Origin: an uncultured Chitinophagales bacterium
Lineage (GTDB): Bacteria; Bacteroidota; Ignavibacteria; UBA10030; UBA6906
NCBI GenBank assembly: GCA_964444145.1
Contig: CAYUFU010000002.1
Location: 38,722 to 102,721, forward strand
Direction of reading: 5' to 3'
Length of the DNA: 64,000 nt
Position 1 is the first letter of the stretch. Each line of letters begins with the position of its first letter. Below are positions 3,329-19,701 of the stretch, piece by piece. The notes beneath the pieces were generated by a model, which was given only the letters and a program-made list of their open reading frames with translations, was not told the DNA's origin and ran no database searches. The translations under genes were made by a program, and so were the position numbers.

Positions 3329-3400
<72 letters not shown>

Positions 3401-3744
3401 AGCTATGTTGCGCACATCAGCAAATCACTCAGACGCCGAAAAAATATACGTACACCTTCTACGACATGCAAATACCGCCGCGAGGTACGAGGTTTGGCGT
3501 ACAACATGCCGCCTTCGGACGAACCACGTTGCCGAGTATTCCAACCCACGAAATGAACAAAGCGATTTGGGCGAACTGTGTCCTTGACAACGTATGTTAC
3601 TTTATTTACTATTAGGCGAGAGGATGGCTGGAGAAGAAAACGCTCTTATACTTCGTTCGTGAGCCATCTGTTCGGTGTCGTGCGTCCATGTGCGGAGCCG
3701 CTCGACTATGACAGGGCCATACATTCACAACAACGTTCATTGCA

Positions 3745-5334
3745 ATGATTCACTCCCTTCTCCCACCTCCCCGCAGTGCCGATTACCGCATCGCAGTGGT
3801 AATCGCTGTATTTACCATCTCATGTACCTTCTTTATTTTCTCTTGCGACGACATTGACCCGCTGCCCCCTGCAGTTTCGACGGCGACCGCTCGGCTGACG
3901 GTCGAAGAAGTGCAAGTTCTCATCGCGCACGCAGTCGAACAAGCGCAGCGCGTGAATCAAAAGGTGATTGTCGCAGTGTCCGATCGCGAGGGGAATATTC
4001 TCGGCGCCTTTCGTATGACCGGTGCGCGGTTGGATTCGAGTGATCTGAATTTCAACGGCGGCACCGTGAAAGTCACCACACTCGATACAACAATCCGCAA
4101 AGCGCGCACGGCAGCATTCCTGAGCAGTAACCAACATGCCTTCTCGACCGCAACGGCATGCTTCATTACGCGTTCACATTTTCCTCCGGGTATCTCGAAT
4201 ACGCCCGCAGGTCCGCTATTTGGAGTCGGACTGTCGAGCTTGCCGGGCAGTGACATTATGCCGAACGGCAACGCGCTGAGCGATTTGCCCGGCGGCGTCC
4301 CAATTTACAAAGGTGGCGTGCTCGCGGGGGGCATCGGCGTACATGGCGCAGCGTCGCAATTCAATTCCACCTTGTGTACGGGACAGAGTTTTGACGAAAC
4401 GATAGCGCTCGGCGCGTTGGGTGAGTTCGTTCTTCCGCCAAACGTGCGCGGCGATGGAATTTTTATAGACGGTATTCGCTTCTTATTCGCGAACGGAGCC
4501 GCGCCGGCGGGGAATTTCACGCTCACGTTCGCGAATCTCTCGTCGCTTGGAGCGGTCCTCATGCCGGTGCTTGGTGCGCCGATTCAGAAATTTCCTTCGG
4601 TGGCAGGTTACGTGAACCTCGATGCTACCCATGATTTCAATCCGCGTGCTGGGTCAATCCTCACGGTAGCAGATGTCGAGCGAATCATCAGTCAAGCCGC
4701 GGCGCAAGCGGCGAAAACGCGTGCAGCGATCCGCCGTCCCGTTGGTGTATCCGCCCAAGTGTTCATCTCCGTTGTTGACTTGAACGGTTCCGTGCTCGGC
4801 ATTTGGCGCACACCCGATGCAACGATTTTCAGCTACGACGTGAGTGCCCAGAAGGCGCGCACTGCACTCGCATTTAGCGATCCGAACAACACGAACTTTG
4901 GACGACGCATCCGTTCGATCCTTGGCATCGCGCCGACTGCTCCACTTTCAATGACCACGCGCGCAGTCGGTTTCCTTGCGCAAGATTTTTATCCGCCCGG
5001 TATTGACCGCGATTCGCTCGGTCAACCTATGGCACCGGGACCGTTGTTTGAAGGGGAGAATTTCAGATATCAATTCCGTTTGCTCGGCGAGGCGGGATTG
5101 CCCGCGTACGGCAACGGCATCACGATTTTTCCTGGGGGCATTGCACTGTACAAGAACGGCCAGCTTGCAGGTGCCATCGGCATCAGCGGCGATGGTGTTG
5201 ATCAGGATGATATTATCGCGGCGGCGGGAACGGCAGGCTTCGAGCCTCCTGCAAATGTTCGCTGCGATCAGTATTCATTTCGCGGCGTGCGCTTGCCGTA
5301 TGTCAAGTTTCCGCGGCAGCCGGAGATTCGATAA
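3745..5334 (+). CDS. Exported (lipo)protein with two tandem GlcG/HbpS-like (haem-degrading, PF03928/DUF336-like) domains
   Basis: N-terminal hydrophobic stretch with Cys (AVVIAVFTISCTFFIFSCDD). Domain 1: LTVEEVQVLIAHAVEQAQRVNQKVIVAVSDREGNILGAFRMTGA...IRKARTAAF...GGVLAGGIGVHG. Domain 2: LTVADVERIISQAAAQAAKTRAAIRRPVGVSAQVFISVVDLNGSVLGIWRT...AQKARTALAF...GQLAGAIGISGDGVDQDD. Both follow the GlcG pattern. Confidence 0.7.
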   Translation: MIHSLLPPPRSADYRIAVVIAVFTISCTFFIFSCDDIDPLPPAVSTATARLTVEEVQVLIAHAVEQAQRVNQKVIVAVSDREGNILGAFRMTGARLDSSDLNFNGGTVKVTTLDTTIRKARTAAFLSSNQHAFSTATACFITRSHFPPGISNTPAGPLFGVGLSSLPGSDIMPNGNALSDLPGGVPIYKGGVLAGGIGVHGAASQFNSTLCTGQSFDETIALGALGEFVLPPNVRGDGIFIDGIRFLFANGAAPAGNFTLTFANLSSLGAVLMPVLGAPIQKFPSVAGYVNLDATHDFNPRAGSILTVADVERIISQAAAQAAKTRAAIRRPVGVSAQVFISVVDLNGSVLGIWRTPDATIFSYDVSAQKARTALAFSDPNNTNFGRRIRSILGIAPTAPLSMTTRAVGFLAQDFYPPGIDRDSLGQPMAPGPLFEGENFRYQFRLLGEAGLPAYGNGITIFPGGIALYKNGQLAGAIGISGDGVDQDDIIAAAGTAGFEPPANVRCDQYSFRGVRLPYVKFPRQPEIR

Positions 5335-5539
5335 GGGTCGGATCACAAGGGCACCACCCTCGATATTAGAAACACATTCTTGGTTTGAACCCCGAAGGGG
5401 GGCAATGATCTTTTTTGTCGAGTCTTGGTTTGTTCGCTTTGCGTAACTTCATTCAAACACTACCTCTCCGTCTCTTACGTATTGTCGTTTGTTGAATATG
5501 ATGATCGGCTTTGAAAAATTCTCGGACAAAGGTTCAGCG

Positions 5540-7234
5540 ATGACACATTTGTCACGACGCCTCATTTTTTTTGCACTCGCACTCCCCTATGTGCTCTCAG
5601 CATTCCCGCTTTGGTCACAAACACAACGCGACACGCTTGCCGCGCCGAAGGACACGCTGAAAACCAAACAGCAAGAGCTGAAAGACTTTGAAGTGATGGA
5701 CCATCGCTGGGATATCAAGCAGCCGCCGTCGGAGCTGACGGTTGAAGGCAGCACGCTCGATCCGTACAACCAGAACATCCTCAAGGGCGATTACCCGATC
5801 ATCGGACAGAACACGTTTCTGATTTTGACTGCAATTGCGGAGAATACCTTCGAGCTTGTGAAAAACCCGACGCCAAGCGGTGTGAGTACGCGCGAGCCGC
5901 TGAGCGATCCGTTCTTCGGCAAAGGCGAGCGGCTGCTCAACAACGTGAACGCAAAACTTTCTGTTGAATTGTACGGCGGGCAGACGGCGTTCCGTCCCCG
6001 CGATTGGGAATTGAAAGCAACTGCGGTGTTCAATTTGAATTACACGAAGCTGAAAGAATTCAACGGGGTGAACATCAACGTGCGCAAAGGCGACACGCGG
6101 ACGGAGAACCATTTGGGTTTTCAGGAATTGTTTTTTGAAAAACATCTCTTCAACGTGAGCGACCGCTTCGATTTCATTTCGTTCAAAGCGGGTATTCAAA
6201 AATTCTCGAGCGACTTTCGCGGGTTCATCTTCAATGACTTCAATTTGGGCGCTCGGCTCTTCGGCAATCTCGATAACAACAAGATCCAATGGAATCTCAT
6301 CTACTTGCCGATGTTGGAAAAAGAAACCAACAGCGAGCTGAACACCGTCTTCGATGATCGTGAGCAGGACGTCGCTATTGCGAACGTGTACATTCAAGAT
6401 TGGTGGGCGCTTGGCTACACGACGCAATTCAGTTTCCATTTCAATCACGACAAGCCGACGACACATTTCGATGAGAACGGATTCCCGGTGCGTCCTGCCA
6501 TTGCGGGCAACACGAAACCGCACGACATCAAAGCATACTACGCCGGCTGGACGGGCGACGGGCACATCGGCTGGCTGAACATTACGCACGCGTTGTATCA
6601 AGTGTTCGGCAAGGACGACTTCAATTCGTTCGCGGGAAAAGCGATTGACATCAACGCGCAAATGGCGGCGCTCGAGCTTTCCGTTGACGACGATTGGCAG
6701 CGATTCAGAATTTCCGGCTTCTACGCGTCGGGCGACGACGACATTGCCGACGACAAGGGGAAAGGCTTTGACGCTATCCTCGACGCGCCTATGTTTGCCG
6801 GCGGCGGATTCAGTTGGTTCAACTCGCAGCGAGTCGGATTGCAGGGCGTGGGGCTTGTGCAGAAGCTGAGTCTCCTGCCGACGTTGCGGAGTAGCAAGTT
6901 AGAAGGACAAGCGAATTTCGTCAACCCCGGACTTCTGCTCGCAAACATTGGCTACGACGCGGACATCACGCCGAAGCTCAAAGCGATTTTCAACGTGAAC
7001 TATCTTCGCTTCGTCAACACTGCAGTCCTGCAAAACTTTACGAACCAAAACAGGATTCATAAACAGATCGGCATTGATTTCAGTCTCGGCATCATCTATC
7101 GTCCGTTCCTGAACAACAACGCGGTGTTCACGTTTTCGTTTGCGGGATTGTCGCCGTTGCAGGGTTTTAAGGATTTGTTTGAGACTTCGGCGATACAGTA
7201 CGCGGGCGTTGCATCGCTGGCGTTTACGTATTGA
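5540..7234 (+). CDS. Outer-membrane beta-barrel protein, candidate porin partner of the downstream multihaem cytochrome
   Basis: Signal peptide MTHLSRRLIFFALALPYVLSAFPLWSQ (start at ATG 5540 inside ORF 5489..7234). Alternating amphipathic strands throughout, no Cys, C-terminus ...ASLAFTY (aromatic terminal residue typical of OM barrels). Family not recognised. Confidence 0.6.
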   Translation: MTHLSRRLIFFALALPYVLSAFPLWSQTQRDTLAAPKDTLKTKQQELKDFEVMDHRWDIKQPPSELTVEGSTLDPYNQNILKGDYPIIGQNTFLILTAIAENTFELVKNPTPSGVSTREPLSDPFFGKGERLLNNVNAKLSVELYGGQTAFRPRDWELKATAVFNLNYTKLKEFNGVNINVRKGDTRTENHLGFQELFFEKHLFNVSDRFDFISFKAGIQKFSSDFRGFIFNDFNLGARLFGNLDNNKIQWNLIYLPMLEKETNSELNTVFDDREQDVAIANVYIQDWWALGYTTQFSFHFNHDKPTTHFDENGFPVRPAIAGNTKPHDIKAYYAGWTGDGHIGWLNITHALYQVFGKDDFNSFAGKAIDINAQMAALELSVDDDWQRFRISGFYASGDDDIADDKGKGFDAILDAPMFAGGGFSWFNSQRVGLQGVGLVQKLSLLPTLRSSKLEGQANFVNPGLLLANIGYDADITPKLKAIFNVNYLRFVNTAVLQNFTNQNRIHKQIGIDFSLGIIYRPFLNNNAVFTFSFAGLSPLQGFKDLFETSAIQYAGVASLAFTY

Positions 7235-7290
7235 ATTCTACATAACCGTAGGTACCCCGTCCCTACAAAGAAACAATCTCTGGTTCAAGT

Positions 7291-10200
7291 ATGAATAGTT
7301 TCTTGTTGCGCGCAATTATCACTTGTGTAATCATTGAATGTCTCAGGGACACAATGATCGGCCAAGACTCCTTCATCAACCAAACCCAAGCCGACGCCGA
7401 TCGCAAGAGCAAAGGCTGCATCACGTGCCACGGCGGTATCGAGCCGATGCACAAGAGCAGCGCAGTAAAGTTAGGTTGCATTGATTGTCATGGCGGCAAT
7501 CCGAACGCGACGATTGCCGACCTCGCGCATGTGCAGCCGCGATTTCCCGACCGGTGGAAAACATCGGCGAATCCCCCGCGGACCTACACGCTGCTGAACG
7601 AAGAGTATCCCGAATTCGTTCAGTTCGTGAACCCGGGGGATTTGCGTGTTGCCGATAAAGCGTGCGGACCCTGCCACAATACGACAAGCGATCCAATCGT
7701 GCGCAACGTGCAAAAAAGTTTGATGACGACCAGCGCGCTGCTCTGGGGAGGCGCGGCGTACAACAACGGCATCGTCTCAACGAAAAATTACATTCTCGGT
7801 GAAAGTTACAGTTGGGACGGCAAGCCGCAGAAGATCAACACGGTTCCGGTGCCGAGCGCAGAGGACATGAAGAACAAAGGCGTGCTTCCGTTCGTCGTGC
7901 CGCTGCCGCGCTGGGAGATTACGCAGCCGCCGGATAATTTCCGCAGCTTCGAGCGCGGCGGCAAAGTTCCGCGCATCAATCCGTCGGAGATTGGTATTCC
8001 GAACCCATTTGAAGAGCCGGGCAGACCCGACAATAAGTTGAGCGATCGCGGAACGGGAACGCAACTGCGCATCAGCTCGCCGGTGTTGAACATCCACAAG
8101 ACGCGTTTGAACGACCCTCATCTGTCGTTCATGGGAACGAACGACAATCCGGGTGACTATCGTTCGAGTGGATGCACAGGCTGCCATGTCGTGTACGCAA
8201 ACGATCGCTCGAATTTCAACGCGGGTCCGTACGCGGTGTTTGGCAATCGTGGACAAAGCAAAACCGCCGACACGACGATTTCGAAAAGAGAGTCAGGGCA
8301 TCCTATCAAACATCAATTCACACGGGCGATTCCCTCGTCGCAATGCATGAGCTGCCACATGCACCAGCCGAACGCGTTCGTCAACACGTATCTCGGCTAC
8401 CAAATGTGGGACTACGAAACGGATGCAGAGTTGATGTATCCGAAGCAGCAGAAGTATCCGTCGAATGCGGAAGCCTTTGCGATGCTTGCGAGGAATCCGG
8501 AGGAGGCAGTGCTGCGCGGCAACTGGAGTGACCAGGAGTTTCTTGCTAATGTTTCCTCGCTCAACCCGCAGCTTGCGCACTCGCAGTTCTCTGATTACCA
8601 TGGACACGGCTGGGTGTTTCGCGCCGTCTTCAAACGAGATCGGAAAGGAAATCTGCTCGACAAGGACGGCAAAGTCATTCCCGACAACGCGCCGTTCAAG
8701 TTCGACGGCGTCGTGCCTATCGAAGGCGTCACGCCGAAGACAATGAGCGCCGCAAGTCAGAGCGCGCAGAAAGCCGTGCATTTGAAAGACATTCATCTGG
8801 AAAAAGGAATGCACTGCGTTGATTGTCATTTCAAACAGGACGCGCACGGCGATGGAAAGTTGAAAGGCGAGTTCCACAACGCGGTCGAAATTCAATGCGT
8901 TGATTGTCACGGAACCATGAGTGCGAGGGCAACGCTGAAAACCTCTGGAGTTGCCGCGCCGGCGGGCGGCACGGACTTGACGCAAACATTCACACCATTT
9001 GGCGAACGGCGTTTTCGAAAAACCGCGACGAGTATCAGACAGCGGTCGACTCTCGTGGACACCTTGAGTTGGGAAATTCTCCAGACAGTGGACTCGCACA
9101 CATCGGGCGCAGCGGGATACAATAAGAAAGCTGAAGCCGCCCATCTGATGTTGAAGGACGGTACGATTGGCAAGCCGAATTCGCCTGAGGAGATGTTCGC
9201 CCATTCATACAAAAAAATGGAATGCCAAGCTTGCCACACCTCTTGGATTACGAATTGCTTCGGCTGTCATCTCCCGCAGCAAGCGAATTGGAAGAAACAG
9301 ATGAACCACTACGAAGGCGAGCTCTCGCGCAACTGGACGACATACAATCCACAAGTGCTGCGCGACGATGCGTATATGCTCTGCCTGACGGGCACAACGA
9401 AAGGAAGCAAGATCACGACGGCACGTTCATCGAGTGCGCTCGTCCTCAGTTCGGTGAACGCGAATCGCGAACAGATTTACATTCAGCAAGCGCCGATCTC
9501 ATCACCGGGGCACAGCAGTCAGGCGTTCAATCCGCATTTCTCGCATGCCGTCCGAGCAACCGAGACGAAGCAATGCACCGATTGCCACGTCTCGTCGAAG
9601 AACGACAATAACGCGTGGATGGCGCAGTTGCTTTTGCAAGGAACGAACTTCGTCAACTTCATCGGGAAGTATGCGTACGTTGCTGCGGGCGACGGCGGAC
9701 TCGAAGCGGTGCAAGTGACCGAGCAAGACGAGCCGCAAGCGGTGATCGGAAGTTATCTGCACAGCATTGCGTATCCGGATTATTACAAGGCGCATCTCGA
9801 CAATCGGAAGCAACTCCGAACTTCCTATCATCACAGCGGCAGCGCCTTGAGCGTGCAGTTGCGCGGCGAGTATCTGTACGCGGCGTGCGGCGAAGACGGG
9901 TTCCGCGTGTATGATGTCGCAAACGTGGATAACAAAGGGTTCTCCGAACGCATCGTCACGTCACCGGTATCGCCCTTCGGGCAGGACACGCACGTGAAGA
10001 CCCGTTTCGCAACCGCGGTCGCGCTCCCGACCAACATGCCGATTGACACGCGGCGAAGGTATCGTCCGGAAAACCAAGAGCAGGCGGTCGAGTATAACGG
10101 GAAACAACTCAATCTTCATCCGTCCTATAGCTACGCCTATATCACCGACAGATATGAGGGGTTGATTCTTGTTGATGTGATGAACCTCGTGGACGGAGAC

Positions 10201-11004
10201 CCCCGAAATAATTTCTTGGAGCGTGCGCTCACGTTCAATCCCAATGGGATCTTGAATGGTGCAGTGAATCTTGCGGTTGCGGGGAATTACGTTTATGTTT
10301 GCTGCGACCGCGGCGTCGTCATCGTCAGCATCGCAGATCCGATGAAGCCACGCGTTGCCGCCGAGATTCCGGCGCCTGCAATCACGAAGCCGAAAGCGAT
10401 TGCCATTCAATTCCGCTACGCGTTCGTCGTTGATGACCAAGGTGTGAAGGTGATTGACTTGACGTGGATGGATCAGCCGAAGCTCGTGAAGAGCGCCGTG
10501 GTTCCGCTGCAAGATGCGAATGATGTTTACGTTGCGCGAACGTACGCGTACGTTGCAGCCGGCGCTCAAGGGCTGGCGATTATTGACGTTGAAAATCCAG
10601 AAGCGCCGAGGCTTGAAAAGTTGTTCACAGCGGACGGCGCTATCACTGATGCGCAAGGAGTGAAAGTCGCCTCGACCAACGCGAGCCTGTTCGCGTACGT
10701 TGCCGATGGGAAAAATGGTTTGCGTGTCATTCAGCTCACGTCGCCGAAAACGCCCGGCTATTTAGGCTTCAGTCCGAAGCCCGTGCCGCAATTGATCGCG
10801 ACGATGCCGATGCGCGGCAGAGCGCTTGCTGTCTCGAAAGGGATGGATCGCGACCGCGCGGTGGACGAAAGCGGCAATCAGGTCAGCGTGTTCGGCAGGC
10901 TCGGCTCGCGCCCGTTCACGCACGATGAAATGCGGCAGATGTATTTGAAAGAGGGAAAGTTGTGGACTGTGACGGATGATGGGAGTGTTTCTCTCAAGAA
11001 ATGA
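7291..11004 (+). CDS. Decahaem c-type cytochrome fused to a C-terminal LVIVD-repeat beta-propeller (1237 aa)
   Basis: Ten CXXCH motifs in the first ~770 aa: CITCH, CIDCH, CGPCH, CTGCH, CMSCH, CVDCH x2, CQACH, CFGCH, CTDCH. The C-terminal ~450 aa consist of LVIVD-type repeats (YLYAACGEDGFRVYDVANVDN, YAYITDRYEGLILVDVMNL, YVYVCCDRGVVIVSIADPMKP, YAFVVDDQGVKVIDLTWMDQP, YAYVAAGAQGLAIIDVENPEAP, FAYVADGKNGLRVIQLTSPKTP). The N-terminus MNSFLLRAIITCVIIECL is hydrophobic (signal/anchor). Confidence 0.85.
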   Translation: MNSFLLRAIITCVIIECLRDTMIGQDSFINQTQADADRKSKGCITCHGGIEPMHKSSAVKLGCIDCHGGNPNATIADLAHVQPRFPDRWKTSANPPRTYTLLNEEYPEFVQFVNPGDLRVADKACGPCHNTTSDPIVRNVQKSLMTTSALLWGGAAYNNGIVSTKNYILGESYSWDGKPQKINTVPVPSAEDMKNKGVLPFVVPLPRWEITQPPDNFRSFERGGKVPRINPSEIGIPNPFEEPGRPDNKLSDRGTGTQLRISSPVLNIHKTRLNDPHLSFMGTNDNPGDYRSSGCTGCHVVYANDRSNFNAGPYAVFGNRGQSKTADTTISKRESGHPIKHQFTRAIPSSQCMSCHMHQPNAFVNTYLGYQMWDYETDAELMYPKQQKYPSNAEAFAMLARNPEEAVLRGNWSDQEFLANVSSLNPQLAHSQFSDYHGHGWVFRAVFKRDRKGNLLDKDGKVIPDNAPFKFDGVVPIEGVTPKTMSAASQSAQKAVHLKDIHLEKGMHCVDCHFKQDAHGDGKLKGEFHNAVEIQCVDCHGTMSARATLKTSGVAAPAGGTDLTQTFTPFGERRFRKTATSIRQRSTLVDTLSWEILQTVDSHTSGAAGYNKKAEAAHLMLKDGTIGKPNSPEEMFAHSYKKMECQACHTSWITNCFGCHLPQQANWKKQMNHYEGELSRNWTTYNPQVLRDDAYMLCLTGTTKGSKITTARSSSALVLSSVNANREQIYIQQAPISSPGHSSQAFNPHFSHAVRATETKQCTDCHVSSKNDNNAWMAQLLLQGTNFVNFIGKYAYVAAGDGGLEAVQVTEQDEPQAVIGSYLHSIAYPDYYKAHLDNRKQLRTSYHHSGSALSVQLRGEYLYAACGEDGFRVYDVANVDNKGFSERIVTSPVSPFGQDTHVKTRFATAVALPTNMPIDTRRRYRPENQEQAVEYNGKQLNLHPSYSYAYITDRYEGLILVDVMNLVDGDPRNNFLERALTFNPNGILNGAVNLAVAGNYVYVCCDRGVVIVSIADPMKPRVAAEIPAPAITKPKAIAIQFRYAFVVDDQGVKVIDLTWMDQPKLVKSAVVPLQDANDVYVARTYAYVAAGAQGLAIIDVENPEAPRLEKLFTADGAITDAQGVKVASTNASLFAYVADGKNGLRVIQLTSPKTPGYLGFSPKPVPQLIATMPMRGRALAVSKGMDRDRAVDESGNQVSVFGRLGSRPFTHDEMRQMYLKEGKLWTVTDDGSVSLKK

Positions 11005-11048
11005 AAAGCAATATCGAATATCGAACAAGGAATGTTGAATAACGAAGT
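11005..11048 (+). repeat. Cassette terminal repeat, copy A (AAAGCAATATCGAATATCGAACAAGGAATGTTGAATAACGAAGTG), directly after the cytochrome stop codon
   Basis: Shares GCAATATCGAA...CAAGGAATG...CGAAGTG blocks with copy B (11112-11146, same orientation) and with the inverted copy C (11577-11620). Confidence 0.6.
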
Positions 11049-11111
11049 GAGAGCGCAACGGCTGTGCTTGTTAGTTCATGACCTCCTTATCCAAAGCTCT
11101 GTAAGGAGATG

Positions 11112-11146
11112 AAAAACAATATCGAATATTGAACAAGGAATGTCGG
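11112..11146 (+). repeat. Cassette repeat, copy B (AAAAACAATATCGAATATTGAACAAGGAATGTCGGA)
   Basis: Direct repeat of copy A, 107 bp downstream. Overlaps the TTG-initiated 5' end of ORF 11129..11566. Confidence 0.55.
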
Positions 11147-11155
11147 ATTTTTCAA

Positions 11156-11566
11156 ATGAGGACGGTGATGGATTCGAGACAGAAGCGACAGTTTGATCTC
11201 GAAGAGCGGCTCATTGATTTTTCCTGCATGATCATTGACATCGTCGAGGCGCTCCCCGATACGAAAGTAGGCAATCATGTAGCGGGACAGATTCTGCGGT
11301 CTGGAACTTCACCTGCGCCGAATTATGCCGAAGCGACGAGCGCGGAATCGCGACAGGACTTCATTCACAAGATGAAAGTTTCGCTCAAGGAGTTTCGTGA
11401 GACGAACGTGTGGCTCAAAGTCATAAAGCGAAGAGCCCTTATCAAGCCTTTGGAAAAAATGGAGATTGCGCTGACCGAATGCCGCGAACTCATTTCGATT
11501 TTCGTAACGAGCATCGCGACAGCGAAACGAAATCTGAGGACAATCCCGAGGGCAAGTTCCAAATGA
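11156..11566 (+). CDS. Four-helix-bundle protein (TIGR02436-like, the family encoded inside 23S rRNA intervening sequences)
   Basis: MRTVMDSRQKRQFDLEERLIDFSCMIIDIVEALPDTKVGNHVAGQILRSGTSPAPNYAEATSAES...KMKVSLKEFRETNVWLKVIKR matches the conserved layout of this family. A paralogue lies at 17150-17590. ORF-track start 11129 is TTG; ATG at 11156 preferred. Confidence 0.7.
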   Translation: MRTVMDSRQKRQFDLEERLIDFSCMIIDIVEALPDTKVGNHVAGQILRSGTSPAPNYAEATSAESRQDFIHKMKVSLKEFRETNVWLKVIKRRALIKPLEKMEIALTECRELISIFVTSIATAKRNLRTIPRASSK

Positions 11567-12588
11567 AGTTCACCGGCACTTCGATATTCAATATTCGTCA
11601 TTCCTTGTTCGATATTGCTCTTATCCTTTTTGCGTTGTGGGGCGATGCTTTTGCACAAGGAAAATACCAAACGCTTGGTCCTTCCGGCTGCGGCATCGGT
11701 CAGGACAAGTGCCACGCGACCGAAAACGGACAGATGATCAAGCAGCACAAGAACTCCGCAACAAGTATTGCCGATGGAGAAAATTCACAAAAGTACGCGG
11801 ACGCGCTCGGCGTGAAAGAGTTTCTCCAAAGCCCCCAGTGCATGAATTGCCATGGAACGATTATTTCCGGCAAAGAAGGGAAGGAAGTCGAAGAAGGGGT
11901 GAGTTGCGAGAGTTGTCATGGCGCGGGAAGCGGCTACAAAGATCCGCACTCCGAAGGCCCGAAAGGTAGTGAAGGACAGCCTCGTCCTGGCTACACAAAA
12001 AGCCTCGCGCTGGGACTTGCCGATTTGAAGAAGCCGGAAGAGATAGCAAAAGCATGCGTGCGTTGTCACTACACGACGGATCAAAGACTTATCAGCGCAG
12101 GCCATCCCGATGGTGCCAAGTTTGCCTACAAGTCGAAAATGAAGGATGTAGCGGAGCACTGGAGGTACCGCGACAAAAAGAATGTTCCCGAAGGAGCGGT
12201 ATTCAAAGCAGCGATGGATCGTCGGGCGCCGGGCGCGAAATTCTCTCAGACGCCCAAGCCGGTTGCCCAGCAGGCTCCTGCGCAGCCACCGGTAAAAAGT
12301 CCAGCGCCGACTCCCCAAAAGCCGACTCCGCAAAGTGTTGACGTCACTGCGCCGCCGTTGCAGAAGCAGAACATCGGCGATCAGCCCGCGCCAACGCCGC
12401 GCGTGCGTAAGCCACCACCACCGCCTACACCTGTTGCCGCCGATCGCGACGCTGATCCCCCGCCGACTCCGGCCGAACTGAAAGATCTGCCGCCGTTTCC
12501 GGCGATCACCGAGAGCACGCGCGTTGATCGCATGCTGTTGTTGCTGAAAAAAAGGTTGGAGCTACTCTACACGAAGACAAAAAACTGA
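11563..12588 (+). CDS. Small exported c-type cytochrome (3 canonical CXXCH plus one CX6CH-like site) with a Pro-rich C-terminal tail
   Basis: Signal peptide MKFTGTSIFNIRHSLFDIALILFALWGDAFAQG. Haem motifs CMNCH, CESCH, CVRCH, plus CGIGQDKCH. Tail PKPVAQQAPAQPPVKSPAPTPQKPTPQ...KPPPPPTP. ORF-track start 11410 overlaps the four-helix-bundle gene in another frame and is rejected. ATG 11563 yields the signal peptide. Confidence 0.75.
   Translation: MKFTGTSIFNIRHSLFDIALILFALWGDAFAQGKYQTLGPSGCGIGQDKCHATENGQMIKQHKNSATSIADGENSQKYADALGVKEFLQSPQCMNCHGTIISGKEGKEVEEGVSCESCHGAGSGYKDPHSEGPKGSEGQPRPGYTKSLALGLADLKKPEEIAKACVRCHYTTDQRLISAGHPDGAKFAYKSKMKDVAEHWRYRDKKNVPEGAVFKAAMDRRAPGAKFSQTPKPVAQQAPAQPPVKSPAPTPQKPTPQSVDVTAPPLQKQNIGDQPAPTPRVRKPPPPPTPVAADRDADPPPTPAELKDLPPFPAITESTRVDRMLLLLKKRLELLYTKTKN
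11577..11620 (-). repeat. Cassette terminal repeat, copy C (inverted relative to A/B); lies inside the signal-peptide coding region of the 11563 cytochrome
   Basis: Reverse complement GAGCAATATCGAACAAGGAATGACGAATATTGAATATCGAAGTG matches copy A at both ends. Confidence 0.6.
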
Positions 12589-12590
12589 GA

Positions 12591-12619
12591 ACCACGGATT
12601 ACACGGATTTACACCGATT
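12591..12619 (+). repeat. Left inverted repeat (ACCACGGATTACACGGATTTACACCGATT) of a second small cassette
   Basis: Imperfect inverse partner CAATCCGTGCAATTCCGTGAAATCCGTGGTT at 12786-12816. Confidence 0.5.
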
Positions 12620-12625
12620 AGGTTT

Positions 12626-12712
12626 ATGGAAGAAGAAAAGCAAGAGTCGAAATTGCTTTATGAGGATCTGACCTATCAAATCATTGGCGCGGCGATGGAG
12701 GTCTCCGAGTAG
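12626..12712 (+). pseudogene. Truncated GxxExxY-family gene fragment (28 codons then TAG)
   Basis: MEEEKQESKLLYEDLTYQIIGAAMEVSE* matches the conserved N-terminus (LTxKIIGAAIEVH) of GxxExxY proteins, another family typical of 23S rRNA IVS. No continuation in any frame. Confidence 0.5.
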
Positions 12713-12785
12713 GATTGCTTCTGAATTTCGGGACGCTCAGTCTTGAATACAAAAGAAGAATTCTGTAAAGAGAAATTCCTAAAAA

Positions 12786-12816
12786 CAATCCGTGCAATTC
12801 CGTGAAATCCGTGGTT
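12786..12816 (-). repeat. Right inverted repeat of the GxxExxY-remnant cassette
   Basis: See 12591-12619. Confidence 0.5.
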
Positions 12817-12831
12817 AAATAATTCGTGATT

Positions 12832-14460
12832 ATGTCACTCGGTCAAACACAACTCAAACGTCTCGAACAGTATAAGGATCGTTGGACGTCATTCGGCGCA
12901 ACGACGGGCATCATCGAGCTGTCCGAAAAACCGACGCCTGAAGTCTTGAAACGCTTCGAGATCTTCAAAAGCTACGACGACAAATTCCTCGAGAAGATTT
13001 CGCCTGACGTTTCGGTTGCGCGATGGAAAGCAGGAACGGTGCTGTTCGAAGAGGGAAGTTATCTTGATCTTGCGTTCTTCGTTTTCTCGGGGACGGTGGA
13101 TGTGTATTTGGAAAAAACGCGAGGCACGCCATCACCTATTTTCGACCGTGGTAAAACACGAGTGATTACGGCTCCTCTTGAAGGCGGCACGCGCCCGACA
13201 TCGCCGCAGCGAACGATGTTCATGACGCAAGTCGGCAAGCAAGAACGCGCGACAGGGCAAATCACCTTTCTCGCTGCGATGGATTTCAATTTGCCGGCGG
13301 CAGCAACGATGCGGTTGGGCACAGGAGAGATGTTTGGTGAAATCGGCGCGCTGAGCGGCTGGCCCCAATCCGTCACCGCCAAAACTGCGAGCGAGTGCGT
13401 GCTCGTGCAAATCCGCACGGCGGCACTGCGACTCATGCGCAAACGCTCGAGTGCCCTCAAGCAGCGTCTCGACGCATTATACAAAGAACGCTCGCTGATC
13501 GCGCAGTTGCAGGCGACCCCGCTCTTTCGGGCTGCAAGCGAGTCGTTCATTCGCGCCGTTGCAGAAAAAGTTGACCTTGTCTCCTGCGAGCCGGACGATG
13601 TGCTGACGCGTGAGGGCGAACCGTGCGACGCGCTCTATTTGGTGCGCAGCGGTTTCATAAAACTCTCCCAGAAAGTGGGAGAGGGTGAGATTGTCGTCTC
13701 GTACCTTTCGAAAGGAAGTACACTCGGCGATGCGGAATTGTTGCTCGAGGGAAATCCTGGCTGGCTCTTCACGGCATCGTCGAAAGAGTATTCGGAGCTT
13801 GTCAAAATCCCGCGCACAGAATTCCAGAATCTCATGACGCAAAGCCCCGGTGCTGAGCGCATGTTGTGGGAATCCGTTGTTGCGCGTGTCAAGGAATCGG
13901 GCTTCAATCGGAAGAACATCGGGCAAGCGGAGTTTCTTTCCACCGCAATCAACAAAGGCTTGGTGGAAGGCAACAGCATGCTCGTCATTGATCTCAATGT
14001 TTGCACGCGTTGCGATGACTGTGTGCGCGGCTGTTCGGATACACACGGCGGCATACCGCGTTTCGTGCGCGAAGGGGACAAGGTTGGTAACTTTCTCGTT
14101 ACGCGTTCGTGCTACCATTGTCAAGACCCCGTCTGCTTGGTTGGCTGCCCGACGGGAGCAATACGGCGGACGGACGTCGGCGACGTTGTTGCCATCGAGG
14201 ATAACCTTTGCATCGGGTGCGCGTCATGCGCCAACAATTGTCCCTACGACGCGATCGTGATGCACAACGTCGGCGGCATGTGGCCCAGCGACATGATCCC
14301 CGAAGGGTTGCGCGGAAAAGAGAAAACACTCGCGACAAAATGCGATTTATGCTACAAGGACCCGGCGGGTCCCGCCTGCGTGCGCAGTTGTCCGCACGGC
14401 TGTGCAGTGCGTGTCGGCGACGTGCAGGAATTTCAATCGCTGCTCTGGAAGGAAGTGTGA
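12832..14460 (+). CDS. Two cyclic-nucleotide-binding (cNMP) domains fused to an NrfC/PsrB/HybA-like ferredoxin with four [4Fe-4S] clusters
   Basis: cNMP domain 1: GTVLFEEGSYLDLAFFVFSGTVDVY...GEMFGEIGALSGWPQSVTAKTASECVLVQI. cNMP domain 2: DDVLTREGEPCDALYLVRSGFIKL...LGDAELLLEGNPGWLFTASS. Four Cys clusters: CTRCDDCVRGC, CYHCQDPVCLVGCP, CIGCASCANNCP, CDLCYKDPAGPACVRSCP. No Tat or signal peptide, so predicted cytoplasmic. ORF-track start 12826 is GTG; ATG at 12832. Confidence 0.8.
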   Translation: MSLGQTQLKRLEQYKDRWTSFGATTGIIELSEKPTPEVLKRFEIFKSYDDKFLEKISPDVSVARWKAGTVLFEEGSYLDLAFFVFSGTVDVYLEKTRGTPSPIFDRGKTRVITAPLEGGTRPTSPQRTMFMTQVGKQERATGQITFLAAMDFNLPAAATMRLGTGEMFGEIGALSGWPQSVTAKTASECVLVQIRTAALRLMRKRSSALKQRLDALYKERSLIAQLQATPLFRAASESFIRAVAEKVDLVSCEPDDVLTREGEPCDALYLVRSGFIKLSQKVGEGEIVVSYLSKGSTLGDAELLLEGNPGWLFTASSKEYSELVKIPRTEFQNLMTQSPGAERMLWESVVARVKESGFNRKNIGQAEFLSTAINKGLVEGNSMLVIDLNVCTRCDDCVRGCSDTHGGIPRFVREGDKVGNFLVTRSCYHCQDPVCLVGCPTGAIRRTDVGDVVAIEDNLCIGCASCANNCPYDAIVMHNVGGMWPSDMIPEGLRGKEKTLATKCDLCYKDPAGPACVRSCPHGCAVRVGDVQEFQSLLWKEV

Positions 14461-15299
14461 TGCCAAAGTCACTACTCAGATCAATCCCTCTGGACAAGCT
14501 CGTCCGCTCTCCCGATTGGGCGGCGGGATTGCTTATCGCAAGCCTCGTGCTCGGCGCAATGTACGCACTGAACGCGTACCTTGACGAAATCAATCCGGGT
14601 AACTGGTGGGGCTTGACGTACGGCTGGCTTTCGGCGCTGCTCATGCTTGGCGCGGGTTTGTATGGCGTGCGACGAAGAATGTTAAACCGCAACATTGGCA
14701 ACTCAAAAGTCTGGGTACAGTTTCATATTTACGGGGGCTTGCTCGCGGGTTTGCTTTTCTTGTTTCATACCGGCTTTCGTTTTCCGAGCGGTCTGTTCAA
14801 TTGGCTGCTCTGGCTGCTCTCGGTTTGGGTGACGGTCAGCGGCGTCATCGGCGTCGTGTTGCAGCGATGGATTCCGCGCATTCTTGCGTCGGGACTTTCG
14901 ACCGAAGCGGTGTACGAGCGCATTCCTGAACTCATCGGGCACGTACGCGAGCGAGCCGAGAAACTTGCGAGTTCCTGTACGATGCCTGTGCAGGATTTTT
15001 ACCGCGCGACGCTCGCAGCGGAGTTCGCCATGCCGCGTCCGCGCCTCATTTATTATTTCGACGTGACCGGGGGGATTCAGTCGTGTATCAGACGCTTCGA
15101 GTTTCTTCGCCGCGTCCTCTCGGTCGAGGAGAAAGAAAAGCTCGATAGCTTACAAGACATGTATCGAACGAAATTGGAATTGGATGCACATTACTCGCTG
15201 CAGACTGCATTGCGGTGGTGGCTCTTCTCGCACGTGCCGCTCTCGCTTGTACTGCTGCTGATGATCGCACTGCATGTTTGGGCAGTGTGGTATTACTAA
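14460..15299 (+). CDS. Integral membrane protein (5 predicted TM helices, His-rich), candidate b-type cytochrome-like membrane anchor
   Basis: Start ATG overlaps the upstream TGA (gtgATGcc), i.e. translational coupling. Helices AAGLLIASLVLGAMYALNAYL, WWGLTYGWLSALLMLGAGLYGV, VWVQFHIYGGLLAGLLFLFHTGF, LFNWLLWLLSVWVTVSGVIGVVL, WWLFSHVPLSLVLLLMIALHVWAVWYY. His residues sit inside helices 3 and 5. Haem ligation is inference only. Confidence 0.65.
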   Translation: MPKSLLRSIPLDKLVRSPDWAAGLLIASLVLGAMYALNAYLDEINPGNWWGLTYGWLSALLMLGAGLYGVRRRMLNRNIGNSKVWVQFHIYGGLLAGLLFLFHTGFRFPSGLFNWLLWLLSVWVTVSGVIGVVLQRWIPRILASGLSTEAVYERIPELIGHVRERAEKLASSCTMPVQDFYRATLAAEFAMPRPRLIYYFDVTGGIQSCIRRFEFLRRVLSVEEKEKLDSLQDMYRTKLELDAHYSLQTALRWWLFSHVPLSLVLLLMIALHVWAVWYY

Positions 15300-15411
15300 C
15301 GTGGATTGATGGATTGATGGATTAATGGATTGATGGATTAATGGATTGATGACCAGGACCAAACCCTTCGATCCATTGATCCAACAATCCAACAATCCAA
15401 TAAGCCAGGAA
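15300..15411. repeat. Tandem GGATTGAT/GGATTAAT octamers (x6) followed by an inverse-type arm (ATCCATTGATCCAACAATCCAACAATCCAATAA); gene-less copy of the element at 17043-17635
   Basis: Directly visible: GTGGATTGATGGATTGATGGATTAATGGATTGATGGATTAATGGATTGATG ... CCAACAATCCAACAATCCAATAA. Confidence 0.7.
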
Positions 15412-15434
15412 TACTCCTAAGCTCTCAGAGGGTC

Positions 15435-17051
15435 ATGCCAAACTCAAAAGACGAAAACAGAACCAAAGGCACCTTCAGCGACGTGCGCATGCCCGTCGCG
15501 AGAACATACATTAGACCGCTCTCGCGCAAGCTGATGATGACTCTCGGCGGCATTGTTTGTGGAGTCGTTGTTGCCTACTATGCCGTTGACTCCCTGCTGT
15601 TGAAGAATACATTCATTGCGAGCGGTCCGGTGGCGGCGAGCCACGCCAACTTCGAGAGCGAATGCGCGAAGTGCCATACGCCGTTCCGCGGCGTGAACGA
15701 TAGCAGGTGCACGACCTGTCATGAGAAGACGAACGACAAGTTGGGGGTATATTCCTTCGCCGCGCATTACCTGTACCGATCGGCAATGCCTGCGCGTATT
15801 GCCGATGCAAAGCAGAAACACGGCGCAGATGAGAAAATGTGCGCTGCTTGTCACCCCGATCATAAGGGACGCAACGCAAGCATCACCGTCGTGACAGATG
15901 CGAAATGCGCCACGTGCCACTACTCCTCGTTCAATGACGATCATCCTGAGTTTGAGTTTGCACGCACGAATGCCGTGGACGATTCGACCTTGAAGATGAC
16001 CCATGTAAAGCACACAAAAGAAGTATTGAAGGAACTTAATACGGCGAACATCGAAACCGCCTGTCTCTATTGCCACAATCCGATGGCGGATGGGAAAGCC
16101 TTCAAGCCGCTCGACTTCGACATGCACTGCGGCGATTGCCACCTCACGGCGAATACGGCATCCGCGTCGCTGACGATTCGCGACCCAAGCAATCCCAGTG
16201 CTCTCGGCGTCGAGACGTTGGAGATGATTCAACAACGAAGAGGTCCCGGCACGCGTTGGGCATTCTATACGAACCCAAACGAATTTACTATTACCGGCTC
16301 GCGCGTACAGAAAGCTCCCGTCTATCATCGCGATCCGTGGATTCTTGAAAACCTCAAAAGGATTCGCTCGATGCTCTACACGGAGGTCGGCCTCTCGGAT
16401 TTGTTGAATGCCGCAGGTGCCGGAGCGGAGAAGGGCAATCAGCAGTCGTATAACGAGGCGATTCAAACGCTCCGCGAGTATGTCACCGGCTTGCGCCCTC
16501 GTCCAGAAAAAGAAATTCAACAGGAGCTTACGACGATTGATTCCTTGTTGGATGTTGCGTCGCGCGTTGTGAATACGCCGGCAGTGACGCTCTCTGATTC
16601 GCTCTTTCGCATAACGGTGCGCATGGAAAACCCAAGCCTCACGGCGCAACAGAAGCAGGATATTTCGGATTTCGGCGAGAAGCTCGCGAAGCCGTGCCTC
16701 GAGTGTCATTACGTTGAGCGTGCGGCGATTCTTGGCGTGAAGGCGATCCAGCGAACGTTTTCGCGTGCCGAGTTCGATCATCGCGCGCATATTACGCAGC
16801 GCCGCTGCCTCGAATGCCATGACGTAATACCGATTGACGATGCGCTGTCGGACGATTCACTCGCAGTTACACGAGCCGCCGCGAAGATTCCGACGCTTGA
16901 TATCGCAGCGACACACAATATTCCGAAAAAAGAAAACTGCATCGAGTGTCATACAGCAGGCGCAGGGTCGAATGAATGCATCACATGCCACTTCATGCAT
17001 CCGAACAAAACGCAGCGCGGGAGTTTACAACTATTCGTTTCTAAGCCCTGA
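15435..17051 (+). CDS. Membrane-anchored decahaem c-type cytochrome
   Basis: N-terminal TM helix MMTLGGIVCGVVVAYYAV. Ten CXXCH motifs: CAKCH, CTTCH, CAACH, CATCH, CLYCH, CGDCH, CLECH x2, CIECH, CITCH. Confidence 0.85.
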   Translation: MPNSKDENRTKGTFSDVRMPVARTYIRPLSRKLMMTLGGIVCGVVVAYYAVDSLLLKNTFIASGPVAASHANFESECAKCHTPFRGVNDSRCTTCHEKTNDKLGVYSFAAHYLYRSAMPARIADAKQKHGADEKMCAACHPDHKGRNASITVVTDAKCATCHYSSFNDDHPEFEFARTNAVDDSTLKMTHVKHTKEVLKELNTANIETACLYCHNPMADGKAFKPLDFDMHCGDCHLTANTASASLTIRDPSNPSALGVETLEMIQQRRGPGTRWAFYTNPNEFTITGSRVQKAPVYHRDPWILENLKRIRSMLYTEVGLSDLLNAAGAGAEKGNQQSYNEAIQTLREYVTGLRPRPEKEIQQELTTIDSLLDVASRVVNTPAVTLSDSLFRITVRMENPSLTAQQKQDISDFGEKLAKPCLECHYVERAAILGVKAIQRTFSRAEFDHRAHITQRRCLECHDVIPIDDALSDDSLAVTRAAAKIPTLDIAATHNIPKKENCIECHTAGAGSNECITCHFMHPNKTQRGSLQLFVSKP

Positions 17052-17130: not shown

Positions 17131-17149
17131 CAACTATTGAGGAGAAGTT

Positions 17150-17590
17150 ATGGAATACACAAAACTCAGAAACAAGAATCGCGGCTACATGAAGTTGGAT
17201 GTGTGGCAAAAGGGAATCGTGCTGTTCCAGCTCGTTTGGAATCTCATCACGAAAGCAAAAGTAGATTTTAAGCTGCGGTCACAAATCGCCAATGCTGCTC
17301 AAGGGATTTCATCCAACATCGCGGAAGGCTATAGCAGACGCTCGGTAAAGGAGTATCTTCAATTCTTGTATGTTTCTCTCGGCTGTCTTTCTGAAACGCT
17401 CACGAGGTCTGTGGGGCTAAAAGTGATAAACCAAATCTCTGAAGACGAGTTCAATCAGATTGACGTTTTGCATTATGAAATTGAAAACAAACTGTGGCGA
17501 TTGGTCGAAAGTTTAGGGCGGAAGAAAGACGATGGCACGTGGAGCGATCGCGTCTCAGAGGATTTATCGGAATACCCAACAATCCAATAA
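17150..17590 (+). CDS. Four-helix-bundle protein (TIGR02436-like), second copy
   Basis: MKLDVWQKGIVLFQLVWNLITKAKVDFKLRSQIANAAQGISSNIAEGYSRRSVKEYLQFLYVSLGCLSE carries the family signatures LDVWQK, NIAEGY and EYLxFLxxSxGSLxE. Alternative start at M14 (17189). The C-terminal codons overlap the right repeat arm. Confidence 0.75.
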   Translation: MEYTKLRNKNRGYMKLDVWQKGIVLFQLVWNLITKAKVDFKLRSQIANAAQGISSNIAEGYSRRSVKEYLQFLYVSLGCLSETLTRSVGLKVINQISEDEFNQIDVLHYEIENKLWRLVESLGRKKDDGTWSDRVSEDLSEYPTIQ

Positions 17591-17625: not shown

Positions 17626-17635
17626 TCCTAGTGTT

Positions 17636-18538
17636 ATGAAAGCGCGTCTCTTTTGTAAAACAGGCCAGCTCGCCGGCGCGAGCTTCGAGATTGGGACGGA
17701 CGCGATGATCGGCAAGAGTGCCGAATGCGTGATTCAACTCTACCCGCAGTTGATCTCGTCGCGCCATGCGCGCATTTATTTTGACGAAAAAGCGCAGAGC
17801 TATTTTCTCGAAGACCTCAATAGCCGTAATGGAACGAAATTAGACGGCACTCGTGTCAAAACAAAGGAGCGGCTCGGCTCGCTGCACGTGATTACGCTCG
17901 CGAACACGTTCGATTTTCTTTTCCAAGTGATTGACGAGAGCCAACAGATCGCAGCGCCGAAGGGTGAGCCTGCAAAACCAGCGACGCTCAAAACAGAGTT
18001 GGGGAGCGGCTACGTGCCACAGCAAACGCCGCCCCCCGCAATGCAGCAGGTTGCACCGAAAACCGTAATGAGCGACGAGCCATTGGCGAACGCTCCGCTC
18101 GCGTCTCACTCGCGGGAGAAAACGATTTTCGAGAACGATGCAATTCCCGTCTTTCGACAACCGAAGGAACAGGAGAAACGAGCCGACGCGAAGATTCCAG
18201 AAGAGAGTATCCCCACCCCCATGCCTCGTCCGCAGACGCCCGCAGCAAAACCTATCACCTTTGCAGTGGTAGTGGACTCGACGGGAAAATCCTACGAACT
18301 CAACGAAGGCTCGACCATTGTCGGCAGAGACGCATCGTGCGGCATCTGCATCGAACATGGCTCGGTCTCGCGCAAGCACGCGGAGTTGCTGCTCAAAGGC
18401 GGCAAGTTGACCGTCAAAGATTTGGGGAGCAAGAATCATACATTCATCAACGATCAGAAAATCAAAGTTGAGACGGAAATCCACGAGGGCGTAACGCTGA
18501 CCTTTGGCGTGGTGAGGGCGCGGGTGGTTAAGGCCTGA
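17636..18538 (+). CDS. Protein with two FHA domains separated by a Pro/Ala-rich linker
   Basis: FHA 1: IGKSAECVIQL...SSRHARIYFDEKAQSYFLEDLNSRNGTKLDG. FHA 2: TIVGRDASCGICIEHGSVSRKHAELLLKGGKLTVKDLGSKNHTFINDQKI. Both carry the G-R...S-R/H...N-G-T/hydrophobic signature. Confidence 0.8.
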   Translation: MKARLFCKTGQLAGASFEIGTDAMIGKSAECVIQLYPQLISSRHARIYFDEKAQSYFLEDLNSRNGTKLDGTRVKTKERLGSLHVITLANTFDFLFQVIDESQQIAAPKGEPAKPATLKTELGSGYVPQQTPPPAMQQVAPKTVMSDEPLANAPLASHSREKTIFENDAIPVFRQPKEQEKRADAKIPEESIPTPMPRPQTPAAKPITFAVVVDSTGKSYELNEGSTIVGRDASCGICIEHGSVSRKHAELLLKGGKLTVKDLGSKNHTFINDQKIKVETEIHEGVTLTFGVVRARVVKA

Positions 18539-19681: not shown

Positions 19682-19701
19682 TCTTCAAAACGTAAACGAC
19701 C

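Follow-up and report, generated by a model that had tools for sequence, protein, structure and literature searches.

A widely recurring barrel–multihaem cytochrome operon from an uncultured Ignavibacteria bacterium and a tentative electron route from the cytoplasm to the outer membrane

The 64,000-nucleotide stretch analysed here (hereafter the window; contig CAYUFU010000002.1, assembly GCA_964444145.1, from an uncultured Chitinophagales bacterium placed by GTDB in the Ignavibacteria) contains a cluster of co-directional genes, lettered A to K, in which an outer-membrane β-barrel (B) is encoded directly before a decahaem cytochrome (C) and followed by the genes of an inner-membrane and cytoplasmic redox module. 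The conserved operon of this lineage is A-B-C-D-E-F-G-I-K, since related genomes carry I and K directly 3′ of G, without H or J, and the gene set recurs in hundreds of species of at least ten phyla. In total, the operon accounts for 24 probable c-type haems and two probable b-type haems. We tentatively propose, at somewhat less than an even chance, that its products form one electron-transfer chain running from the cytoplasm to the outer membrane, in which C would be the terminal oxidoreductase and B a docking platform and most probably also a channel. The system resembles a porin–cytochrome conduit with an unusual inner-membrane feeder and, judged by sequence, lies outside the families against which it was tested, namely Mtr/Mto/Pio, Cyc2, AlgE/OprD, FdnI/CbcL and the DmsB-type equivalogs.

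Seven open reading frames (ORFs), A to G, fill positions 3745-17051 on the + strand, and all seven agree in coordinates and features with a preliminary description of the locus as seven co-directional genes. The genes it listed stand, and its extent was too short, as the conserved unit runs on to 22047 to take in I and K. We read these genes as one unit because they are co-directional with small gaps or overlaps, have no intergenic terminator-like site, share one good promoter-like site and are flanked by unrelated genes. E and F overlap by 1 nt, with the start codon of F on the stop codon of E, and an inserted gene, D0, overlaps D by 4 nt. Upstream of A (3584..3612, + strand), the sequence TTGACA-17-TACTAT agrees at 10 of 12 positions with the sigma-70 consensus, the standard used here, from which promoters of this phylum may differ; it is the best such match in 3000-22600. 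Terminator-like + strand sites, sought over the same interval, are absent from the spacers between genes A and K. The 5′ boundary is a tRNA-Gly(CCC) gene (3328-3400, − strand), the only Rfam match in 3000-22600, accompanied by divergent esterase and permease genes, and the genes 3′ of 22047 are likewise unrelated to the cluster. A Logan assembly contig of run SRR12686701 matches the window, and the same genes are called there.

Of the 8000 candidates scored in the search with B, more than 6800 are homologues at E ≤ 1e-3, and the search with C gave at least 8000 clusters at 90% identity; the source names of the homologues listed for both proteins are all "hypothetical protein". By exhaustive profile search, the B family comprises 588 clusters at 50% identity (E ≤ 1e-30), and a scan of one genome per GTDB species places B in at least 594 species genomes. 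Its carriers are Ignavibacteria, other Bacteroidota, Zixibacteria, KSB1, Planctomycetota, Acidobacteriota (mainly Pyrinomonadaceae/Blastocatellia), Nitrospira, Desulfobacterota-like metagenome-assembled genomes (MAGs) and Thermoanaerobaculia, to which the search with C adds Calditrichota and Omnitrophota. The nearest relatives of the window protein B are found in Ignavibacteria/Bacteroidota MAGs. A literature search for the gene set found no paper describing the cluster.

The order A-B-C-D-E-F-G-I-K recurs in Ignavibacteria/Bacteroidota genomes. In Nitrospira, the genes run D-[flavo-E]-F-[FHA-G]-A-B-C, where brackets enclose fused proteins and flavo stands for a flavoprotein domain, and in Pyrinomonadaceae an [E-F]-[FHA-7 haem] pair lies beside A, B, C, a 4-haem cytochrome and two 9-haem cytochromes. 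The preliminary description would have fallen if the barrel were never syntenic with multihaem cytochromes in relatives. This is not the case: C follows B in 74 of 77 B-carrying loci, and some barrels are fused to a cytochrome c3 domain. A adjoins B in 59 of the 77, on either strand. Within the loci that have full 10-kb flanks, further multihaem genes occur in 33 of 39, E/F in 21 and a G-like protein in 20. Chance adjacency of unrelated genes was considered and is ruled out by this recurrent synteny together with four independent gene fusions; the gene order recurs in independent genomes, and the 20 haem-binding cysteines of C are invariant in 60 homologues.

B (5540..7234, + strand, 564 aa) is free of cysteine and is predicted by AlphaFold2, on a 25-sequence alignment, to form an 18-strand barrel (predicted local distance difference test, pLDDT, 72.6; predicted template modelling score, pTM, 0.73). 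Family scans of the window protein gave no Pfam or NCBIfam match. When the model was compared with known folds, the substrate channels AlgE and OprD (Occ) were nearest and MtrB far off, so by its predicted structure B is no MtrB/PioB-type sheath; nor is it a member of the MtrB/PioB family (PF11854; 26 strands in the solved structure). The likeness to AlgE and OprD is one of fold only, with no Pfam match of B to alginate export PF13372 or OprD PF03573, and B differs from these channels in its sequence (7-13% identity), its conserved periplasmic N-terminal extension and its obligatory cytochrome partner. This extension of ~70 aa, disordered in the model, is among the most conserved parts of the family. 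Together with the long loops, it is nearly invariant between phyla, which fits a role in protein interfaces.

Three of 150 barrel representatives, as well as the B homologues of loci L020 and L080, carry an N-terminal signal peptide and a class III tetrahaem cytochrome c3 domain, which precedes the conserved N-terminal motif of B and is joined to it by a long linker. The free 4-haem cytochrome encoded in acidobacterial clusters is a homologue of this fused domain (E 1e-11). We regard the c3–barrel fusion as the strongest evidence that B would bind periplasmic cytochromes physically and is not just a porin encoded nearby. In a small share of the B family, an N-terminal c-type cytochrome domain and a barrel are thus joined in one polypeptide, as in Cyc2. 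Cyc2 has one haem and a smaller barrel; unlike it, the fused domain here is a tetrahaem class III cytochrome on a long linker, and most members of the B family, the Cys-free window protein included, have no haem motif in the barrel polypeptide. Many other B relatives of 900-1143 aa (P0383, P0385, P0415 and others) have N-terminal extensions of 300-600 aa, in which neither a Pfam domain nor a haem motif was found.

A (3745..5334, + strand, 529 aa) is a tandem HbpS-like/GlcG-fold protein and a probable lipoprotein. Two stretches match PF03928 in the Pfam scan (1.4e-29, 103 bits against a cut-off of 25), and a match above the gathering score marks A as an HbpS-like/GlcG member by domain assignment; in the PDB sequence search it matched the PduO C-terminal domain, EfgA/GlcG and NahX. 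Its N-terminus, ...FIFSC|DD, resembles a lipobox, with Cys34 followed by DDID.

C (7291..11004, + strand, 1237 aa) combines a decahaem c-type cytochrome domain (residues ~40-770) with a C-terminal LVIVD β-propeller (~850-1237; PF08309, 6e-22, 77 bits against a gathering score of 20.2). Its ten CXXCH motifs are all invariant in the 60 homologues, which come from many phyla, and identity between phyla is 45-83%. The haem domain is sparse in haem, at ~77 aa per haem, and the invariant His and Cys residues of the propeller show no obvious metal-site pattern. Against ExtM (NF040943) the match of C is weak and partial (96 bits against a cut-off of 800), and the best hit in PDB sequence and profile searches is a non-significant one (E ~0.06) to a two-haem stretch of octahaem nitrite reductase/NrfA. 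The MtrC/OmcA-type domain PF22113 has no match in the window protein at E<0.01 and is listed among the precomputed Pfam domains of a few distant C homologues only.

As for location, relatives of C have signal peptidase I (SPI)-type signals in Ignavibacteria (...AQA|QQ) and lipoboxes in Planctomycetota, Nitrospira and Omnitrophota. No surface-export tag was recognised in these N-termini, and Pfam and NCBIfam scans of the window protein found no sorting or export domain. With such signals in its homologues, and no known tag for export to the surface, C would by default be periplasmic or outer-membrane-anchored. The N-terminus of the window protein itself (MNSFLLRAIITCVIIEC...) is atypical, and 7291-7360 (MNSFLLRAIITCVIIECLRDTM...) encodes a poor signal peptide compared with that of close relatives (MLLLALLMSISSVAQA|QQ). 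In one public gene call C begins at Met22, 21 residues later, and a c-type cytochrome started there would have no signal for export.

The gene for D (11563..12588, + strand, 341 aa) encodes a periplasmic protein of the cytochrome c554 family (PF13435, 1.8e-9, 38.8 bits against 20.8) with a Pro-rich C-terminal tail, three CXXCH motifs and one CX6CH motif. The latter, GCGIGQDKCH, is a non-canonical haem motif at the first haem site (residues 44-52, window 11692-11718). In the alignment, the same site reads CX2CH in Planctomycetota and Acidobacteriota and CX4CH in Nitrospira, so its loop length varies by lineage. Since the CX6CH is in register with these motifs, D is probably tetrahaem, like cytochrome c554, with the fourth site presumably occupied; the preliminary call of a 3-4 haem cytochrome with a Pro-rich spacer is borne out. 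Acidobacterial clusters have one 4-haem and two 9-haem cytochromes in place of D. G (15435..17051, + strand, 538 aa) is an inner-membrane-anchored periplasmic decahaem cytochrome with one N-terminal transmembrane helix, ten CXXCH motifs and Cytochrome_C7 and c3_2 domains (Pfam), and in Nitrospira and Acidobacteria its homologues have an N-terminal FHA domain on the cytoplasmic side, the counterpart of the separate FHA proteins I and K of the window. In one locus (L003, 21384-21770), the gene directly 3′ of the G homologue encodes a Ser/Thr protein kinase, which fits the FHA domains found across the system.

Like MtrCAB, MtoAB and PioAB, the cluster sets a decahaem cytochrome gene beside an outer-membrane barrel gene and has multihaem cytochromes to bridge the periplasm. 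D and G reach only ~19-20 bits against the MtrA/DmsE-family decahaem model TIGR03508, whose cut-off is 192. Of the MtrAB/PCC-type conduit first suggested for this locus, the conserved electron-transfer unit and the tie between barrel and multihaem cytochrome hold, and membership of the Mtr family does not. With the Pcc (OmbB-OmaB-OmcB) and Ext systems the cluster shares a small barrel beside periplasmic and lipoprotein multihaem cytochromes, as well as additional cytochromes and inner-membrane components. For Geobacter and relatives, the number of strands predicted in Pcc porins is 18-22 (PMC4245776). The idea that 18 strands would bar B from a porin–cytochrome role was rejected on these numbers; B is a porin-like protein in this size range with C directly downstream and D and G in the operon. 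B and C have no detectable family match, and their likeness to Pcc is judged by strand count and neighbourhood. Further differences from Pcc/Ext are the LVIVD propeller on C, the HbpS-like core member, a far wider taxonomic range, and an inner-membrane part that consists of a cytoplasmic four-cluster iron–sulfur (FeS) protein and a new dihaem cytochrome b, with FHA and cNMP-fold domains.

These comparisons bear on the main rival to our proposal, an extracellular conduit in which a cytochrome part (C, D or the fused c3 domain) would enter the barrel and electrons would cross the outer membrane to insoluble Fe(III)/Mn(IV), to humics or electrodes, or to partner cells. C or A would then be exposed at the surface, and the system would be a functional equivalent of Pcc/Mtr built from new proteins. 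The invariant adjacency of barrel and decahaem cytochrome suits this explanation, as do the tetrahaem–barrel fusions, which recall fused cytochrome–porins, and a complement of 24 c-type haems that exceeds the usual need of a simple periplasmic reductase. Export to the surface would fit with C being a lipoprotein in Planctomycetota, Nitrospira and Omnitrophota and with the Cys and adjacent acidic residues of A, which resemble the surface-lipoprotein export signal of Bacteroidota. B argues the other way, being nearest in fold to AlgE/OprD channels, far from MtrB, Cys-free and in most members devoid of a haem motif, and so does C, which has a low haem density and, at ~50% identity between phyla, is unusually conserved for a surface cytochrome. 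The carriers also include largely aerobic lineages, and the inner-membrane module is tied to cytoplasmic FeS and flavoproteins, with no recognised quinol dehydrogenase. We consider the extracellular conduit doubtful but possible, and keep it alive because of the cytochrome–barrel fusions and the small size of the Pcc porins.

On the cytoplasmic side, E (12832..14460, + strand, 542 aa) has two cNMP-fold domains (PF00027, 1.3e-28, 99 bits) and a DmsB/NarH-type ferredoxin domain for four [4Fe-4S] clusters (Fer4_11/Fer4_9; Fer4_11 at 34 bits against 26.2). It has 16 Cys in four ferredoxin motifs and no signal peptide. Its best NCBIfam match, DmsB at 60 bits, is under the cut-off, and all equivalog models score far under theirs, which makes E a domain relative of the DmsB/NrfC/NarH ferredoxins, by these scores, and not an orthologue. 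The FeS clusters of E should face the cytoplasm, because E is fused N-terminally to F in other genomes and carries cytoplasm-type domains. The preliminary description had seen in E a cNMP sensor subunit. The fold is present; the sensor is not supported, because the phosphate-binding-cassette Arg of the first domain is replaced by Gln in the Ignavibacteria lineage (WPQSVTA, versus PRSATV/ERNATV in other phyla). Cyclic-nucleotide binding by the window protein is thus doubtful, and the ligand may have changed in this lineage to one that is not a cyclic nucleotide.

F (14460..15299, + strand, 279 aa) has five hydrophobic helices, with a soluble insert of ~120 aa between helices 4 and 5. Two pairs of histidines, H89/H103 on helix 3 and H258/H272 on helix 5, are each spaced i, i+14 and are invariant in a 10-sequence alignment; H258 and H272 are 88% conserved in a set of 26. 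Histidines at this spacing ligate two stacked b-haems in cytochrome b and in NADPH oxidase (NOX)/ferric reductase domain (FRD) proteins. These two conserved pairs make F a probable dihaem cytochrome b, one whose family has no name. None of its 457 detected homologues has a functional name (one carries DUF4405), and a profile search found no PDB relative. The ferric reductase domain is characterised by two His pairs ~13 residues apart on helices 3 and 5, as in F, and at E<0.01 F has no match to Ferric_reduct (PF01794), so the resemblance is a shared His pattern, not membership. In NADPH oxidases, ferric reductases and MsrQ-Fre, as predicted here, a cytoplasmic NAD(P)H flavoprotein feeds two stacked b-haems with the acceptor outside, under phosphorylation-dependent cytoplasmic regulators. 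Unlike in those enzymes, four FeS clusters are interposed, and the acceptor would be the 24-haem cytochrome relay, not O2 or Fe(III) directly.

A four-cluster ferredoxin subunit on a dihaem b membrane anchor is also the arrangement of NarHI, FdnHI and DmsB-type enzymes, and CbcL of Geobacter combines a dihaem b with a multihaem c domain. The present system differs from these in equivalog scores far under the cut-offs, in having no molybdopterin subunit, in the cNMP-fold domains of E and in an F of no named family. In NarI, electrons pass from the periplasmic side to the cytoplasmic FeS clusters, and the DmsB/NarH-type ferredoxin of E with the five-helix dihaem F could suggest a similar inward flow, by which C would oxidise a periplasmic or extracellular donor and D, G, F, E and the flavoprotein would reduce a cytoplasmic acceptor or NAD(P)+. 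The occurrence of the cluster in the lithotroph Nitrospira would agree with this. Such a flow would oppose the membrane potential, NAD(P)+ reduction would need a donor of very low potential, the cluster contains no energy-coupling subunit, and most carriers belong to groups of heterotrophs. We judge inward flow to be very unlikely.

CbcL also underlies a third alternative, in which F and G would be a split CbcL that oxidises menaquinol, C would reduce a soluble oxyanion entering through B, and E, I and K would be regulators or an auxiliary electron input. It draws on a weak match of the last helix of F to PF01292 (FdnI/HydC/CbcL-type), on the partial match of C to ExtM, which belongs to a Geobacter selenite/tellurite operon, and on the AlgE/OprD-like channel fold of B. 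The PF01292 match is under the cut-off (20 bits against 30.1) and confined to that helix, and the His pattern of F differs, with two His on each of two helices. Moreover, many genomes join E covalently to F and others join it to a flavoprotein, which marks it as an electron carrier and not a regulator. A quinol-dependent periplasmic reductase therefore seems improbable; this variant and inward flow are both less likely than the extracellular conduit.

The remaining core genes, I and K, lie beyond G. I (17636..18538, + strand) encodes a cytoplasmic protein with two FHA (phosphothreonine-binding) domains (PF00498, 3.6e-35), and directly follows G in loci L002, L005, L006, L008, L012 and L015. 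K (19702..22047, + strand) joins a Pyr_redox_2 FAD/NAD(P)H domain, two FHA domains and a C-terminal 2Fe-2S ferredoxin domain (PF07992, PF13738, PF00498, PF00111), which makes it the candidate cytoplasmic entry point for electrons. A K-like protein follows the cluster in L002, L008 and L012, and weak tblastn matches to K lie directly 5′ of, or overlap, E in L050 and L084. We link K of the window to E through Nitrospira, where the E homologue of L031 (800 aa) has an N-terminal Pyr_redox_2/3 flavoprotein domain homologous to that of K and so combines FAD, two cNMP domains and four 4Fe-4S clusters. E and F form a single protein in L003 (826 aa) and in Acidobacteria (714-868 aa). The four fusions (E with F, flavoprotein with E, FHA with a transmembrane helix and multihaem domain, and c3 with B) imply that these parts are in physical contact.

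From the gene content, its conservation, the fusions, the barrel fold and the His and Cys patterns, we infer cofactor occupancy, contacts, direction and acceptor for the proposed cytoplasm-to-outer-membrane chain as follows. A cytoplasmic reductant, in this lineage NAD(P)H by way of the FAD/2Fe-2S protein K, would reduce the four [4Fe-4S] clusters of E, which would dock on F, where two bis-His b-haems would be stacked across the inner membrane. F would pass electrons to G, the anchored decahaem cytochrome reaching into the periplasm, and the small cytochrome D would shuttle them from G to C. C, with the HbpS-like A, would be docked on the periplasmic side of B. The AlgE/OprD-like 18-strand barrel would provide the docking platform through its conserved N-terminal extension and most probably also a channel for a small acceptor or its product, with C as the terminal oxidoreductase. 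The FHA and cNMP-fold domains suggest that flow would be gated by Ser/Thr phosphorylation and a small ligand. The best reading of the direction is a net outward, non-energy-conserving flow, that is, electron export and not a classical respiratory quinol oxidase. Outward flow is favoured because it would run along the membrane potential, because flavoprotein, FeS protein and dihaem b parallel NOX/ferric reductases and MsrQ-Fre, and because no energy-coupling subunit is present. Pyrinomonadaceae, Pirellulaceae and Nitrospira are largely aerobic lineages; such carriers, and the wiring to cytoplasmic FeS and flavoproteins, argue against ordinary dissimilatory metal respiration.

Several observations weigh against this chain. 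Only about half of the loci have the E/F/G module within 10 kb, and in one 9-Mb genome (L085), where the ORFs of B and C overlap by 20 nt, no other cluster gene is found within 10 kb. No flavoprotein was found within 10 kb upstream of E-F in Pyrinomonadaceae, where the conserved 5′ neighbours are housekeeping genes (FolD, CoaE, TsaBDE, solute-binding proteins and GH3); a general NAD(P)H link was accordingly rejected, since a flavoprotein belongs to the cluster in some lineages only. F might carry a quinone site, which could make E accessory. The second cNMP domain of E is degenerate, and neither domain of the window protein (13330-13400 and 13720-13790) has the phosphate-binding Arg. Beyond its haem motifs, C has 13 further invariant His for its ten haems in the 60 homologues, a number that would also suit a plain bis-His wire in which no haem is catalytic, and residues 25-830 of C reached a pLDDT of only 44 in AlphaFold2 on a 30-sequence alignment. 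The proposed contacts follow from domain content and gene fusions, and the small Pcc porins, as said above, would also allow B a conduit role.

Several tracts within the cluster are insertions or peculiar to the window. D0 (11156..11566, + strand) encodes a four-helix-bundle protein of the 23S-rRNA intervening-sequence (IVS) type (PF05635, TIGR02436) and is an insertion bracketed by 46-nt inverted repeats (11004-11049/11577-11622) with a duplex energy of -52.7 kcal/mol. The D–E spacer (12590..12816, + strand) is an insertion remnant, a 37-nt inverted repeat (duplex -40.9 kcal/mol) around a truncated GxxExxY-type ORF at 12640-12730. The F–G spacer (15302..15402, + strand) contains no ORF; (GGATTGAT)n pairs there with its complement in a long hairpin (fold -54.7 kcal/mol, z -6.8). 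H (17150..17590, + strand) is a second IVS-type protein gene and insertion (PF05635, 1.2e-19), whose flanks (17052-17640) hold inverted GGATTGAT runs with a duplex of -53.6 kcal/mol, compared with -25.7 +/- 3.7 for shuffles. J (18905..19681, + strand), a secreted protein of the FGE-sulfatase family (PF03781, 1.1e-57), is probably not core; with its 366-nt preceding spacer (18539-19681 in all) it separates I from K in this window only, and K follows I in L008 and L012.

D0 and H are absent from all relatives compared and lie outside the conserved system; the four stems likewise have no counterpart there. These stems, of -41 to -55 kcal/mol, occupy four spacers inside the operon, two around IVS-type genes, one around the GxxExxY remnant and one empty. 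They look like IVS-like insertion elements in mRNA and may serve as RNase III processing sites. Two acidobacterial clusters (L079 and L083) have an intact 125-129-aa GxxExxY-type gene between their B and C homologues, a small insert of the kind left as a remnant in the D–E spacer of the window.

The Mtr, Pcc and Cyc2 models are the current basis for predicting environmental electron exchange, and this gene set, whose members are annotated "hypothetical", is invisible to them. Besides redox machinery with FHA and cNMP-fold domains, it provides a probable new dihaem b family of membrane proteins and a predicted direct link from FeS clusters to haem b that may bypass the quinone pool. A bolder proposal, which we hold to be unlikely, is that the operon encodes a widespread electron-export machine, a prokaryotic counterpart of NADPH oxidase and ferric reductase that would be fed by cytoplasmic NAD(P)H or ferredoxin, gated by Ser/Thr phosphorylation and a small ligand, and extended by 24 c-haems to the outer membrane. 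If true, such a machine could explain, in soil and freshwater phyla that are largely aerobic, extracellular reduction driven by NAD(P)H, an activity of which few enzymes are, to our knowledge, identified; reductive iron acquisition, extracellular superoxide formation and humic reduction would be candidate processes. Most multihaem cytochromes of Acidobacteriota have unknown substrates (PMC8100337). Among the carriers of the gene set are abundant soil Acidobacteriota, Planctomycetota, Nitrospira, Ignavibacteria and several candidate phyla. Should the system carry electrons as far as the outer membrane or across it, environmental redox exchange would be far commoner than current marker genes suggest, and common among aerobes.

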